Part shown: positions 2,473-52,708 of the stretch, piece after piece | Layout: every line of letters begins with the position of its first letter | Position numbering within the stretch: the first letter of the stretch is position 1 | Assembly: GCA_022009775.1 (NCBI GenBank) | Contig: CP091723.1 | Coordinates: 69,345-133,344 of the forward strand | Direction of reading: 5' to 3' | Source: Christensenella sp. | Lineage (GTDB): Bacteria > Bacillota > Clostridia > Christensenellales > CAG-917 | Length of the DNA: 64,000 bases | Program-made: the position numbers and the translations under genes | Notes under the pieces: model-generated | What the model was told of the DNA's origin: nothing | The model's database searches: none | The model's input: the letters and a program-made list of their open reading frames with translations, nothing else

Positions 2473-2651
2473 AGTAAATCTTACTATCGTATTTATACCT
2501 TACCACATTTTTTCGCCGATTGCAAGCAAAATAGTAAATTATTTATAAACATATAGCTTATTTATAACTTATAAAGCCACATTTTCGGTTTCGGATGTCG
2601 ATTGTTGTCGATTTTCATCGGCAATCGACAACGCATAGCGGTAAGAAGTTG

Positions 2652-3210
2652 CTACATTCTTGACACAATCACTTTCAATGCGCCGAACGTGGCAAGCACA
2701 TCGCTCAAAGCGCGGTGCGCGTTGTCGTGCGTGATGTCAAAAGCTTTGGAGATTGTTTCCAGCTTGCAGTTTGGCAATTCGGTCAGATAGCGGCGCGCAA
2801 GAAGGAGCGTGTCGCAAAGCTCGTTGTCAAAGACGTAGCCCTGCTTTTCGGCTATGCGAGCGACAATCGGAAAATCAAAGCCGGCGATGTTGTGTCCGCA
2901 AAGTATACTTCCGTGCGCAAACTTGAAAAAGTCGGGCATCACGTTCTCTATGCTCGGCGCGTCAAGCACCATTGCGTTGTTGATGTGCGTGATCTCGGTG
3001 ATTCTTTCGGGTATGCTTGCGGTTGGCTTGACAAGCGTAGAAAAAAGTTTCCGTAGGCACTCCGTCCACCACTTTGAGTGCGGAAAGCTCGATGATTTCG
3101 GCAAGGTCCGTCTTCACATCGGTGGTTTCAAGGTCAAACACAACAAAGGTTTTGCCCTTGAAGTATGGCGAGATTTCTTCCACTTTTCCAATATCTAAAA
3201 GGCTCTTCAC
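2652..3210 (-). pseudogene. DEDDh 3'-5' exonuclease (PolC/DnaQ exonuclease-domain-like), frameshifted
   Basis: ORFs 2962..3210 and 2652..3104 together give FVVFDLETTD...HNIAGFDFPI...HRALSD motifs. The frames join if the A6 run at 3041-3046 is A5. Confidence 0.8.
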
Positions 3211-24093: not shown

Positions 24094-24171
24094 CGGGGTG
24101 TAGCGCAGTTTGGCTAGCGCGTCTGATTTGGGTTCAGAAGGTCGGGAGTTCGAATCTCTTCACCCCGACCA
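24094..24171 (+). tRNA. tRNA-Pro (UGG)
   Basis: Cloverleaf with acceptor CGGGGTG/CACCCCG, anticodon loop TTTGGGT and an encoded CCA. Confidence 0.9.
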
Positions 24172-24200
24172 ACCAAAGAAAACTTCACCGATATTGATTC

Positions 24201-24277
24201 GGGCCTTTAGCTCAGTTGGTTAGAGCAGTCGGCTCATAACCGATCGGTCCGCGGTTCGAGTCCGTGAAGGCCCACCA
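24201..24277 (+). tRNA. tRNA with CAU anticodon, Ile2 (lysidine)-like (may be annotated Met)
   Basis: Anticodon loop CTCATAA. The body is GGGCCTTTAGCTCAGTTGGTTAGAGC, typical of Ile-type tRNAs. Encoded CCA. Confidence 0.85.
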
Positions 24278-24287
24278 AAAATATTTT

Positions 24288-24364
24288 GGCCCGGTAGTAC
24301 AGTTGGTTAGTACGCCAGCCTGTCACGCTGGAGGTCAGGGGTTCGAGCCCCCTCCGGGTCGCCA
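24288..24364 (+). tRNA. tRNA-Asp (GUC)
   Basis: Anticodon stem CCAGC/GCTGG, loop CTGTCAC, encoded CCA. Confidence 0.9.
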
Positions 24365-24497
24365 TCGAGTATGTGGCAGTGACAACCGTCACTGCCATAT
24401 ATTTCAAAAAAGCGGACTTTATGTCCGCACCAATCAAAAATCACTTCGTCTTGCCTATAATGACGATATGATATACAGGGTTCTTCCCTTACAATAT

Positions 24498-24573
24498 GCC
24501 TCGGTAGCTCAGGTGGTAGAGCAAGGGACTGAAAATCCCTGTGTCGGTGGTTCGAGTCCGCCCCGAGGCACCA
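24498..24573 (+). tRNA. tRNA-Phe (GAA)
   Basis: Anticodon stem AGGGA/TCCCT, loop CTGAAAA, encoded CCA. Confidence 0.9.
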
Positions 24574-24585
24574 ACAACTGAATAC

Positions 24586-24661
24586 GCTGGTGTAGCTCAA
24601 TAGGCAGAGCAACTGATTTGTAATCAGTAGGTTGTTGGTTCGATTCCGATCACCAGCTCCA
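24586..24661 (+). tRNA. tRNA-Thr (UGU)
   Basis: Anticodon stem ACTGA/TCAGT, loop TTTGTAA, encoded CCA. Confidence 0.9.
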
Positions 24662-24663
24662 AT

Positions 24664-24748
<85 letters not shown>

Positions 24749-24876: not shown

Positions 24877-24945
24877 ACAATTCCGCAGATTGTCTGCTTG
24901 CTATCCAAGCGGAGACGCTCTTTTTCGTGTTCCAAGGGTGTGGAT
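24877..24945 (+). repeat. direct repeat copy 1 (69 nt)
   Basis: ACAATTCCGCAGATTGTCTGCTTGCTATCCAAGCGGAGA...TTCGTGTTCCAAGGGTGTGGAT. Near-identical to 25166-25235. Confidence 0.85.
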
Positions 24946-25165
24946 TAAGGCTGTTTTTTTGAGAAAACAGCCGCACGCTGCTTTGCGTGCCGAACCACCT
25001 TTTCGGTGCTGACTGCAAGCAAAGAAAGGTGCAAGCGCTTGCATTTGCAGATTTCGTGTGCAGCGGACATAGACGGCGGTGGCACGCACCGCGTGCAATT
25101 TTGCAAAGCAAACGATTGTGCAAACAATCAAACCGCCGTCGTAGACGATTGTCTTCTCTGCTCTG
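24946..25165. other. hairpin-dense non-coding spacer between the two direct repeats
   Basis: Stems: GGCTGTTTT/AAAACAGCC (24949-24972), GCACGC/GCGTGC (twice), CTGCAA/TTGCAG (25011-25050), GACGGCGGT/ACCGCCGTC (25073-25081 x 25133-25141), GATTGT-GCAA-ACAATC. Confidence 0.5.
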
Positions 25166-25235
25166 ACAATTCCGCAGATTGTCTGCTTGCTATCCAAGCG
25201 GAGATGTGCTTTTTTCGTGTTCCAAGGTTGTGGAT
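25166..25235 (+). repeat. direct repeat copy 2 (70 nt)
   Basis: Same sequence as 24877-24945 except for the central GAGACGCTC to GAGATGTGC segment. Confidence 0.85.
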
Positions 25236-27488: not shown

Positions 27489-27516
27489 TGATTATATCAA
27501 TTTGCGGAGACGATTT

Positions 27517-29532
27517 ATGGATATATCTTCCGTCAACAGTGACCTTATTCGCGGCAACGTCACCACCATCATTCTCGGATGCTTGTGGGACACCGACAAA
27601 TACGGTTACGAAATTCTCAAAGAGATTGAAGACAAAAGCAACTCTCACTACGTTTTGAAACAAGCCACTCTTTACAATCAACTCAAAAGGTTGGAAAAGC
27701 AAGGGCTGGTTTCGTCATACGACGGAGACCCTGACGACACGGGTGGTGGCAAGCGCAGATACTATTCTCTCACAAAAGAAGGTCGCGCTTTCCTGAAAAA
27801 AGAAAAAGGCGAATACGAATACTCGCGCACCATTCTCGACAAACTTGTTTCAAACGACGAGTACGACTTCACCAACCCCATACCCTTTGACGCAAGCGAA
27901 CTTCGCCCCTACTCGAAGAGTGCGGAAGAAAAACCCAAAGTCGTGTACAAAGACAAAATCGTCGAGAAAAAAGTGTTCTTTGACCGCTACGGCAACGAAG
28001 TGAGCGCGCAAGATGCCGAACAACTGAGACTTCAGGCCGAACAGGAAGACGAACACGCACGCCTTAAAGACGAGCACGCACGCCTTAAAGACGAGCAACT
28101 AAAACAGCATGAAGAGCAATTAAGGCAATCGGAAGACGACATCCGCAGAAAGAACGAACTTTTGAAACAATCCGAAGAAGACGCCGCTCGCAACGCCGAA
28201 AAACTCCGCCAAAGCGAAGAAGAAGCGTTGAAAAAGGACGAACGTCTACGTCAAACCGAAGAACAGTTGAGAAAGAGCGAAGAAGACAGACAATTCGTCA
28301 AGAGTATGCTTCGCCAAATGGAAGAAGAGAAACTCCGCGCCGAAGAAGAAAAACGTATTGCCGACGAACGTGAACGCGAACGCCTTGCCGAAGAAGAACG
28401 TCTTCGTGCAGAAGAAGCGGAAAAGAAACGTCAGATGCAGGCAAAACCCGCTATGACCATCGAAGAGATGTTTGCAAAACTTGACGCCGAGAGCGAATAC
28501 AACCGTAATAGCGGCGAAACGCAAGTCTACTACGCACCCGAAAACGCCGAACCTATTGAACATACGTACGTCAACGCATACTCTTCACACCCCGTCGAAC
28601 AATCACATTCGCAATCGACGCTAAAAGACATATTCAAGCAACTTGACGAACGCGAGGCTCAAATCGACGCTCAAAACAAGCAAGATGAGCCTGAGCATGA
28701 GCCTGTGCGTGAAGAATACGCCCCCGCCGCTCCGCAAAACGTTGAGCAAGTACAGCCAGTTCAGACAGCACAACCTGTTCAAAATCAAAATACATACGCG
28801 GCGCGCGAGTATATGCCTGCCGAGATAGAAGGCGCAAATCAAAACTACTCTGCTCCTGCCGACAAAGGTCAGTTTGTCACTTCGGCGGTGGTAAATCGTC
28901 AAGAAGGCGGCTTTAAATACGAAAAAGACGACGTAAATTATCGCGAATTCTTCGTATCTCTTTCCGATAACAATCAAAAAGAGCAAGAAGAAGTCAAACC
29001 GCAACAAGTCGATTTTTCGGACAGCGACATCAAGACGAGATTGTATGCCAAAGGCTTCAAAATCCGCCCATACGACCGCGGAAATACAAGCGAATACTAC
29101 ACTTTCAACTTCATACAGTCCAATCGCATCAACCGTGACACGTTCCTTATCATTCTTGCGTTTTTCGTTGCAGAAGTTGCAATTATGTGGGCATCGCTCG
29201 GCACAAAAATAAGTTATACGTACTTCCTGCCCATTCTGTTGGTCGGAAGCGCACTTTGCCTTGTTCCCACCGTCGTGTATCTCACAAATCCGACGCGAAG
29301 AAAGAGAGCGAATTTCAACTTTAAGTTGTCATTGCTCAATCGCGGAATGTTGTTCATAGAACTCACCGTCGTGTGTATACTCATCGGTTTCTTCGGACTC
29401 GGCGCAAACGTCAACGATATTGACCTTATTCTAGAATCGATTGTGCTCCCGATGGTGCTTCTGACCAACCTGCCTCTCAGTTCACTCATCTACTGGTTGC
29501 TGTATAGGACGAGGAAATATCATACAGCTTGA
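27517..29532 (+). CDS. PadR-type wHTH fused to long charged coiled-coil, Gln/Pro-rich linker and C-terminal 4-TM anchor
   Basis: N-terminus ...YGYEILKEI...LYNQLKRLEKQGLV...RRYYSLTKEG matches PadR. About 170 aa of E/K/R/Q heptad-like repeats. Four hydrophobic helices at the C-terminus. GGAGA SD. Confidence 0.75.
   Translation: MDISSVNSDLIRGNVTTIILGCLWDTDKYGYEILKEIEDKSNSHYVLKQATLYNQLKRLEKQGLVSSYDGDPDDTGGGKRRYYSLTKEGRAFLKKEKGEYEYSRTILDKLVSNDEYDFTNPIPFDASELRPYSKSAEEKPKVVYKDKIVEKKVFFDRYGNEVSAQDAEQLRLQAEQEDEHARLKDEHARLKDEQLKQHEEQLRQSEDDIRRKNELLKQSEEDAARNAEKLRQSEEEALKKDERLRQTEEQLRKSEEDRQFVKSMLRQMEEEKLRAEEEKRIADERERERLAEEERLRAEEAEKKRQMQAKPAMTIEEMFAKLDAESEYNRNSGETQVYYAPENAEPIEHTYVNAYSSHPVEQSHSQSTLKDIFKQLDEREAQIDAQNKQDEPEHEPVREEYAPAAPQNVEQVQPVQTAQPVQNQNTYAAREYMPAEIEGANQNYSAPADKGQFVTSAVVNRQEGGFKYEKDDVNYREFFVSLSDNNQKEQEEVKPQQVDFSDSDIKTRLYAKGFKIRPYDRGNTSEYYTFNFIQSNRINRDTFLIILAFFVAEVAIMWASLGTKISYTYFLPILLVGSALCLVPTVVYLTNPTRRKRANFNFKLSLLNRGMLFIELTVVCILIGFFGLGANVNDIDLILESIVLPMVLLTNLPLSSLIYWLLYRTRKYHTA
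28048..28089 (+). repeat. in-frame tandem 21-nt repeat (DEHARLK x2) inside PadR-like gene
   Basis: GACGAACACGCACGCCTTAAA / GACGAGCACGCACGCCTTAAA. Confidence 0.8.
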
Positions 29533-29599: not shown

Positions 29600-29995
29600 T
29601 GCTCTTCTAACCGCGCCGAGAATTTGCGTACACTAAAATAATTGAACGTTTAAAACCCTAAATGCAACATTACCCCTTCCCTTCGGGCTTTCCCCTACTT
29701 CTCGAATATAGTACTTTCTCTTTTTAAGTACACATCGCTCGAAGAGGTGAAGGCGGCACTCGCATAGATAGGTATCGTCCCCTTATTATGCCACCACGCT
29801 TTGTGCGCCGGCTCCGCAACAACACGGCGCAGTCGCTCGTACAACCGTCAAGCTCGGCGCTTATCTCGGCGTTCGCCTTGCGAACGCTCACTTCGAATAT
29901 ACACATTCCGCGTATAAGTACCCATGAATGAGTGAACGTCAAAGACCGCTCCACAAACTCGCGGTTGGTGGCTTATATACACTTCTAACCGCATT
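29600..29995 (-). ncRNA. copy A of conserved structured non-coding element (unknown class)
   Basis: Shares long blocks with 35365-35820 and inverted 52261-52585, with compensatory changes in at least 2 helices. No conserved ORF. Strand inferred from G-U pairs in the other copies. Confidence 0.5.
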
Positions 29996-35346: not shown

Positions 35347-35364
35347 TGCAGTTTTTCTTTTTCT

Positions 35365-35820
35365 GCTTCTAAACAGTACACACTTTAAACTTTAATACAA
35401 CGTTACCCATTCCCTTCGGGCTTTGTCCGACTGCGGCGTTTGCAAAGCATCCGCCTTGTTCGCTTTGGCTACAATTCGTCCACTGGACGACTTGTTTTAC
35501 GCGTCGCGCCCTACTTCTCGAACATAGTGCTTTCTCTTTTTAGCCACACATCGCTCGGAGAGGGGAAGTCGGCACTCGCACAGATAAGTATCGTTCCCTT
35601 ATTATGCCACTTCGCCTGCGTGGCGGCTTGGCAACACAGTGCCACGCATTCTCGTACAACCATCTTGCTCGGCGCTTATCTCGGCGTTCGCCTTGCGAAC
35701 GCTAACTCCGAATAAGCATAGTCCGTTTATAAGAACACTTCGAATAGGCTTTCGTTTCGGGCGCAACCCAAAAACTTTGTCATCATGAGAGTATCGAAGG
35801 ATCTCGTGGAAACGAAACGC
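35365..35820 (-). ncRNA. copy B of conserved structured non-coding element (with ~84-nt extra domain)
   Basis: Collinear with copy A. Insertion at 35425-35508. Distal stem 35748-35758 x 35809-35820. Confidence 0.5.
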
Positions 35821-35939
35821 AAAACTTTTTCTGCGCCGTGCCATATATATTCATTGTTTATTATTGATTCCGATTAATTCTTTTTTCTCAATCTCACATT
35901 TATATTGCAAATCGTGGCTTTTTTGTGTACAATGAAATC

Positions 35940-52087: not shown

Positions 52088-52260
52088 ACTTTTATCTTGT
52101 TCCAAAGAAAAACTTTTTCGCTTGTAAATTTTTGTAAAAAAACCACCCTGACACAAAATAATTAATAAAGAATAATTAACAATGAATAATTGCGACACGG
52201 GCACAAAAAGAATTATCGTTTCGCTTCCGCGAGATTGGCACGTTCTCGCTCGCAATGACA

Positions 52261-52585
52261 TAGTTTTTTTGGTTGCGCCCGAAACTAAAGTTTATTCAGG
52301 GCGTACTTATAGGCATTATGCGTTTATACAAAGCGTGGAGCCGCAAGGCGGCGACCGCATCGAATGCCGAGCTTGACGAAAAGTACAAGCGACTGTGCCA
52401 TGTTGTTGCGAAGCAGGCACACAAAGCGCAGTGGCATAATGAGTGAACAGTGCTTATTATGCGAGTGCTGAGTGTTGCCCCCTGCTGCGCAGTCGCCGTG
52501 GGTTCCCTTGTAAGGGGGAACGGCGATGGGGAAACAGATGACGAAGGGGGAAGTCGCATTAATGACACATATCGAAAACTCATGT
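52261..52585 (+). ncRNA. copy C of conserved structured non-coding element (inverted relative to A/B)
   Basis: The 5' motif TTTTGGTTGCGCCCGAAAC is shared with B. The core blocks GCCGAGCTTGAC, GTGGCATAAT and TGCGAGTGC are shared with A/B. G-U pairs and a GUAA loop occur only on the plus strand. Confidence 0.5.
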
Positions 52586-52587
52586 AA

Positions 52588-52708
52588 AAACGCACTAAAT
52601 AGATAAAGAACAAGGAAGAGCCACCAAACACAGATGGGAGCGTACTTTGTCGTACGTGACCGTATGTGTTGGTGGCTCTGACGCAGTTATTTGCTATTTA
52701 GTGCGTTT
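52588..52708. repeat. nested long inverted repeat (two 15-bp stems)
   Basis: AAACGCACTAAATAG (52588-52602) pairs with CTATTTAGTGCGTTT (52694-52708). The inner stem is GAGCCACCAAACACA / TGTGTTGGTGGCTC (about 52617-52680). The outer arm overlaps the stop codon of the 52698..54104 gene. Confidence 0.7.

Follow-up and report, generated by a model that had tools for sequence, protein, structure and literature searches.

BOX elements of Streptococcus pneumoniae are high-copy intergenic sequences that occur in variable combinations of the modules boxA, boxB and boxC, form hairpins, and possess neither an open reading frame (ORF) nor an identified transposase, with a unit of about 150-200 nt. The repeat family described here resembles them in being high in copy number, intergenic, modular, strongly hairpin-forming and without an ORF or an identified transposase in a small Firmicute genome, whereas its unit is longer (300-550 nt), forms eight or more hairpins, has a 3' module of one of three kinds and a polar AT-rich block on its 5' side, and shows no sequence relation to BOX; Rfam and other searches gave nothing. 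It also shares features with BIME/REP and ERIC (IRU) sequences, which are likewise mosaic, intergenic, enriched 3' of genes and marked by structures with paired changes, ERIC carrying optional internal insertions at fixed sites as well. In contrast, REP and ERIC units are simple imperfect palindromes, while the present element is polar and multi-domain, and REP spreads in association with RAYT (Y1) transposases, of which this genome has none and whose presence across the genus does not correlate with the repeat. With MITEs such as Correia/NEMIS and RUP, the family has in common that its members are short, non-coding, multicopy and polymorphic for insertion between close relatives, but it lacks their terminal inverted repeats, and no cognate insertion sequence was found in the genome. 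IS200/IS605-derived palindrome elements and the guide RNAs of TnpB and IscB (omega RNA, HEARO) are polar, hairpin-rich and free of inverted repeats too, and RNA-like scaffolds of this sort can be multicopy; for the present elements, in contrast, no TnpA, TnpB or HNH-type partner was found and there was no Rfam match to HEARO or IS605-orfB, and their 3' part is one of three fixed modules rather than a locus-specific guide.

Three copies of the element, termed A, B and C, are located in the window, that is, the whole stretch of 64,000 nucleotides of Christensenella sp. contig CP091723.1 that was analysed. They represent three of about 55 elements in the source genome of 1.65 Mb, which belongs to an uncultured human-gut member of the Clostridia. 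The repeat family is undescribed, unusually large and elaborately folded: a literature search found no paper on the repeat, the covariance models of Rfam 15 at their gathering thresholds detected only tRNAs in the window, and permissive thresholds (E up to 10) over A, B and C yielded nothing relevant. The features of copy C and its two companions are as follows, the plus strand of C and the minus strand of A and B being termed the sense strand.

52160-52194, plus strand: AT-rich block of C, composed of AATTAATAAT/GAATAAT units ending in AATAATTGCG; possible weak promoter or shared junction module.
52195-52267, plus strand: 5' module of C, CACGGGC...GACATAGTTTTTTTGG, common to B and about ten other copies by alignment and missing from the orthologous site of the sister MAG G019.
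52268-52475, plus strand: core of C, about 200 nt with four conserved hairpins (nhmmer match 52278-52470; covariance model R1 match 52273-52475, 192.8 bits).
52394-52422, plus strand: best supported core hairpin of C, TGTGCC / GGCACA, found elsewhere as TGCGCC/GGCGCA, GCGTGGC/GCCACGC and GCAAGTGC/GCACTTGC.
52434-52462, plus strand: hairpin 1 of C, GCATAATGAG / CTTATTATGC, with one G-T pair.
52476-52585, plus strand: 3' module X of C, comprising the hairpin CTGC-TGC-GCAG (52482-52492), a long hairpin (52493-52526) with a GUAA loop, and an A/G-rich tail ending in GTCGCATTAATG.
52588-52708, no strand assigned: unit of another repeat family, palindromic, with its arms at 52588-52627 and 52669-52708; it abuts the 3' end of C and is not part of it.
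35347-35892, minus strand: copy B, an insertion relative to the genome G010, with AT-rich block, 5' module, core (35570-35761) and module Y containing an 85-nt insert (about 35427-35511).
29654-29985, minus strand: copy A, core (29754-29935) and module Y ending at 29654.

When the source genome was queried with C and with B, 43 and 65 matches were obtained, respectively, and an iterated nhmmer profile built on the common core of about 200 nt gave 78 matches, which were grouped into the 55 elements. A full unit measures about 300-550 nt and is polar, its order being an optional AT-rich block, a 5' module in one of several alternatives, the core with its four hairpins, and a 3' module. The last of these exists in three recurrent alternatives of similar length, X (25 copies in the source genome, C included), Y (13, including A and B) and Z (19); the distance from core position 11 to the tail is 272-292 nt across units of all three classes, and modules X and Y terminate in GTTGCATT. 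The preliminary description had noticed that C diverges completely from A and B downstream of about 52465, and the alignment of C with the minus-strand copies indeed stops after about 52470; its reading of this part as a variable 3' domain was wrong, since the 3' part of C is the commonest of the three recurrent modules and not a domain of its own.

Two further segments are optional, each with its own fixed place. An insert of 85 nt lies inside the 3' module in seven copies, B among them, and occurs in both X and Y, while in twelve copies the loop of one core hairpin is replaced by an expansion of about 145 nt closed by 10-nt inverted ends, CACACACAAG and CTTGTGTGTG. This expansion (for example at G000:C1:223155-223496, locus L214) resembles a nested small element or an optional domain, and one copy of it is a 73-nt deleted form. 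Truncated, tandem and chimaeric copies are frequent in the family. The AT-rich block, made of the same units and ending in AATAATTG, was found upstream in the sense orientation in 20 of the 55 copies and in the antisense orientation in two, with AATAATTG directly preceding the 5' module as a recurrent left junction of the repeat. Blocks with this ending were seen in the window at 52160-52194 and 35840-35875, and at 32 places in the genome. The block of C is also present in G019, where the element itself is missing, which leaves two candidate roles for the block, as a weak promoter or as a shared module for junctions or recombination.

All 55 elements are intergenic. Convergent intergenic regions hold 19 copies versus 9.6 expected, an approximately twofold excess (chi-square p = 0.0036), and in tandem regions 14 copies are co-oriented with the flanking genes and 13 anti-oriented, which indicates that orientation is free. 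The flanking genes are ordinary or housekeeping ones, encoding a PadR-domain protein, an oxidoreductase, a tRNA, an RNase H, a SpoIVB peptidase and a FAD protein, and their nature points to a spore-forming lineage of Clostridia. At 27502-29532 of the window, an ORF of 676 residues matches Pfam solely through an N-terminal PadR DNA-binding domain (residues 24-99), the other approximately 570 residues being without a match.

The orthologous sites of related genomes revealed a rapid turnover. G019 is contiguous across the region that corresponds to the site of C, with a flanking protein 99% identical, yet it lacks C (52195-52585) and carries about 126 nt of another repeat, a palindromic one, in its place. 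Three other species have no more than about 110 nt in all between the genes at this site, compared with 436 nt here. G010 lacks B (35347-35892), and its tRNA terminator and RNase H promoter are just 35 nt apart. At the site of another copy, the sister MAG G001 holds the palindromic repeat, with a junction lying within sequence common to both families. These comparisons demonstrate gain, loss and exchange of copies at intergenic sites within the time that separates sister species. Modules, too, have been reshuffled between copies.

A covariance-model census detected the repeat in 30 of the 44 genomes of the source genus (g1), in all 12 of genus g29 and in 6 of the 15 of genus g26, and in none of the 13 other genera of the same family; a blastn search of one genome from each of 16 further families in the order, and a search of viral and phage contigs, gave no match. 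Exact-pattern matches in public genomes were all derived from human-gut MAGs, with labels including Firmicutes bacterium CAG:238, CAG:475, "Christensenella sp." UBA bins and UMGS bins. In the sister MAGs (G001, G019 and others), many contigs start or stop within repeat copies, so that the repeat often causes assembly breaks.

The hairpins noted in the preliminary description were confirmed in the window. Hairpin 1 of C pairs 52434-52443 with 52453-52462 in ten pairs around a 9-nt loop, its single G-T pair being G52441-T52455, and the plus-strand C-A mismatch in the corresponding hairpin of B (35578-35588 with 35598-35607) becomes T-G on the minus strand. Hairpin 2 of C consists of GTTCCCTT (52502-52509), GTAA, and GGGGGAAC (52514-52521), with two T-G pairs beside the loop; one correction was made here, as two of these bases, A52520 and C52521, are more probably part of an outer stem that joins TCGCCGT (52493-52499) to ACGGCGA (52520-52526) and covaries among copies as TCACCGT/ACGGTGA, TCGCCGT/ACGGCGA and TTGCCGT/ACGGCAA. 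The inner stem so corrected has six pairs, and its two U-G pairs and the loop are unchanged. The small stem of module X covaries as well (CCGC/GCGG with CTGC/GCAG). In hairpin 1 the proximal GCATA/TATGC is nearly invariant and the distal part displays both G-U and A-C across the family.

Support for pairing was also provided by copies outside the seed. In 39 held-out copies from other species, 89.3% of the consensus pair cells were standard, versus 80.6% in shuffled controls (reached in 0 of 500) and 16-52% when the partner was slid. For the TGCGCC/GGCGCA core hairpin, both sides had changed in six of six pairs in the other-species copies, with 99.5% paired, and its variants are each self-complementary. 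The signal was retained in 32 far more diverged copies of genus g29, with 80.3% paired versus 72.8% in shuffles (0 of 500) and compensatory changes in five of the six pairs of the same helix. The local hairpins are real, preserved through compensating mutations over three genera and maintained by selection. The claim is confined to local hairpins and does not extend to a global fold, since the long-range pairings proposed by RNAalifold differ among classes X, Y and Z. Copy C as a whole folds better than 99 of 100 shuffles (z = -2.6). Mutual information on the core alignment was dropped as a structure finder, its signal being dominated by linkage between module variants; columns 92 and 198, for instance, covary only because one core variant travels with module X.

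The strand on which such structures might act is a separate matter. The preliminary description had assigned the RNA sense to the plus strand of C and the minus strand of A and B on the basis of G-U pairs and a GNRA loop, and although softer evidence leans the same way, the evidence that it cited proved not to be decisive. Across 186 copies of hairpin 1, the position of the G-T pair of C is G-T in 77 and A-T in 72, but in the neighbouring pair A-C (115 copies) outnumbers A-T (68), and A-C on the sense strand would be G-U on the other; the T-G position of B is T-G in one copy and C-A in five. The GNRA tetraloop is not conserved across the homologous copies of hairpin 2, being present (GCAA, GUAA, GAAA) in 20 of the 46 that could be parsed, with UUAA, UCAA and CUAA making up most of the others. 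The strand of a repeat is thus not safely called from isolated G-U pairs and a lone GNRA loop in one copy, and here the family-wide counts cancel them.

A strand-neutral count over the hairpins gave 366 G-U versus 321 A-C. Covariance models constructed in both orientations from the same 21 copies, R1 on the sense strand (28 pairs) and R2 on the antisense strand (13 pairs), scored alike: they differed on average by -1.3 bits for 27 held-out copies from the same genus and by -1.0 bits for 31 copies from another genus. Folding of C alone gave -114.3 kcal/mol on the plus strand and -97.6 kcal/mol on the minus strand, a gap that is attributable to composition; a strand call by single-sequence folding was rejected, with z-scores of -2.6 (plus) and -2.9 (minus). 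The majority variant of the expansion module has A-C in its long hairpin on the proposed sense strand, and the small hairpin of module Y reads C(UUCG)G on the opposite strand. On the other side, the weakly promoter-like AT-rich block favours the sense orientation (20 copies versus 2), the RNAalifold consensus contains 28 pairs on the sense strand versus 13 on the opposite one, the sense strand resembles structural RNAs in composition (31% G, 27% A, 22% C and 20.5% U, its unpaired positions being rich in A), the folding energy of the 3' module was lower on the sense strand in all twelve copies tested, and among pairs that are Watson-Crick in the seed G-U exceeds A-C by 77 to 52, mostly through two fixed positions. 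If the element is transcribed, the purine-rich strand, plus in C and minus in A and B, is therefore somewhat the likelier RNA strand, a tentative assignment.

Overall, copy C probably belongs to an interspersed repeat like BOX, BIME and ERIC, one that is modular, non-coding and present in many copies, rather than being a single RNA gene with a variable domain. Both properties that define the mosaic-repeat class operationally (BOX/BIME kind) were found, namely many modular intergenic copies and conserved hairpins without coding capacity. Under such a reading, copies would spread via a trans-acting activity or via recombination at shared junction modules, and pairing would be required by this spread, or else by the element in an RNA or single-stranded state; transcription, if it occurs, would start just after the AT-rich block on the purine-rich strand. 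Counting against this reading, no mobilising enzyme was found in the source genome. The element is also larger and more elaborately folded than BOX, REP or ERIC units, as well as polar and similar to structural RNA in composition, and its polarity, size, folding and RNA-like composition would also fit a true family of RNA genes.

A promoter-bearing family of structured RNA genes is the main rival, supported by how deeply the structure is conserved, by the polarity and by a composition like that of RNA. It would consist of independently transcribed small-RNA genes in many copies, with the AT-rich block as promoter, the sense strand as RNA and a trans-acting function in which the 3' modules serve as specificity domains. 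The polar block (20 sense versus 2 antisense copies, ending in AATAATTG before the 5' module) accords with this proposal, as do the promoter-like matches in C (TTAATA-17-AATAAT, 9/12, and CTGACA-17-AATAAT, 10/12), the compensatory changes across three genera, the similar unit lengths (272-292 nt) that the three 3' modules yield, and the better folding of the 3' module on the sense strand in 12 of 12 copies. However, a crude sigma-70 rule was passed by only 7 of 19 blocks, no promoter-like site was found on the sense strand of A and B, the block is absent from 35 of the 55 copies, and no terminator lies 3' of the unit. Conserved RNA genes would not be expected to include truncated and chimaeric copies or to come and go so quickly between sister species, the family is absent from 14 of the 44 genomes of the genus, and the two model orientations score alike, all of which makes such a gene family unlikely, though still the alternative deserving most weight. 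A bolder form, in which the repeat is a self-propagating gene for a structured RNA of about 350-450 nt, with its own AT-rich promoter, the purine-rich strand as product, and exchangeable 3' modules and expansions as functional domains, is improbable. If true, it would imply, for example, a guide-like or catalytic RNA working with an unrecognised host protein in genomes without a known transposase or reverse transcriptase.

It is slightly less probable still that the copies are domesticated cis-acting elements, whose hairpins would act in neighbouring transcripts or in DNA as 3'-end stabilisers, insulators or protein-binding sites, as has been proposed for REP/BIME. The twofold enrichment in convergent regions, 3' of genes, accords with this but is equally expected from tolerance of insertion there; stable hairpins on both strands (z = -2.6 and -2.9) and the lack of an orientation preference would suit a structure functional both ways, but the presence or absence of copies at orthologous sites opposes a locus-specific role, and 300-550 nt far exceeds what a stabiliser hairpin needs.

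A non-autonomous derivative of the IS200/IS605 type, moved as single-stranded DNA, would account for the polarity, the hairpins, the recurrent left junction after AATAATTG and the want of inverted repeats and target duplications. An inverted-repeat scan of the B and C insertions found only internal hairpins and none at the ends, and no target duplication is visible at the empty sites of B (G010) and C (G019), of which only one is clean, the G019 site holding another repeat. With respect to replication, the sense strand is leading in 34 copies versus 21, a mild bias that would favour this origin but is estimated not to be significant. Against this origin, the source genome (1.65 Mb, 90% complete) gave no match to a Y1 transposase (PF01797) or TnpB, nor to a reverse transcriptase, IS110 DEDD, rve or DDE_Tnp_1; Y1 transposase genes in the genus do not track the repeat, as they were found in 5 of the 30 genomes that carry it and in 5 of the 14 that lack it; and the AT-rich block of B lies within the insertion and was not a pre-existing target. 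Such a derivation is accordingly very doubtful.

A family of small protein-coding genes, of which the peptide-like 57-codon frame at 52273-52446 in C would be an example, has a negligible probability and coding capacity was rejected, because, despite open frames that run for 44-80 codons on the sense strand of A, B and C, the longest frames vary in strand and phase from copy to copy with no ORF common in strand or frame among them, one-base indels are frequent in the core, the alignment places an in-frame TAA in the commonest core variant, and stem changes are compensatory rather than codon-periodic.

Whichever way the mosaic repeat spreads, it is estimated to account for about 1.7% of these small genomes of gut Clostridia (about 55 copies of about 500 nt). 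It can serve as a strain marker and as a caution for automated gene calling, in which spurious ORFs of 90-190 codons are predicted on its copies. With hairpins kept over three genera and no known mobilising enzyme, the family is also a reasonable place to seek a new mobilisation mechanism or a new multicopy class of RNA.

The palindromic repeat that abuts C is itself multicopy. Its members of about 120 nt have arms of the type GCGCTAAATAGCGAATAACTGCGTCA around a central GTAC...GTAC core, and about 30 matches were found in the genome by a loose regular expression, both strands counted. It often adjoins the main repeat and, as noted above, lies at the site orthologous to C in G019 and at that of another copy in G001.

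Two other repeated structures were observed beside tRNA genes. At 24094-24745 and 24877-25214, the window contains a cluster of six tRNA genes followed by a 49-nt direct repeat in two copies (94% identical, 289 nt apart) that ends in a T run. In the genome G013 (locus L103, G013:C1, about 2640-3070), a unit of about 190 nt is repeated 3' of the orthologous tRNA; each unit begins with the last 25 nt or so of the tRNA and its terminator, a start that is present three times, and the array looks like the product of repeated integration or duplication at the 3' end of the tRNA.
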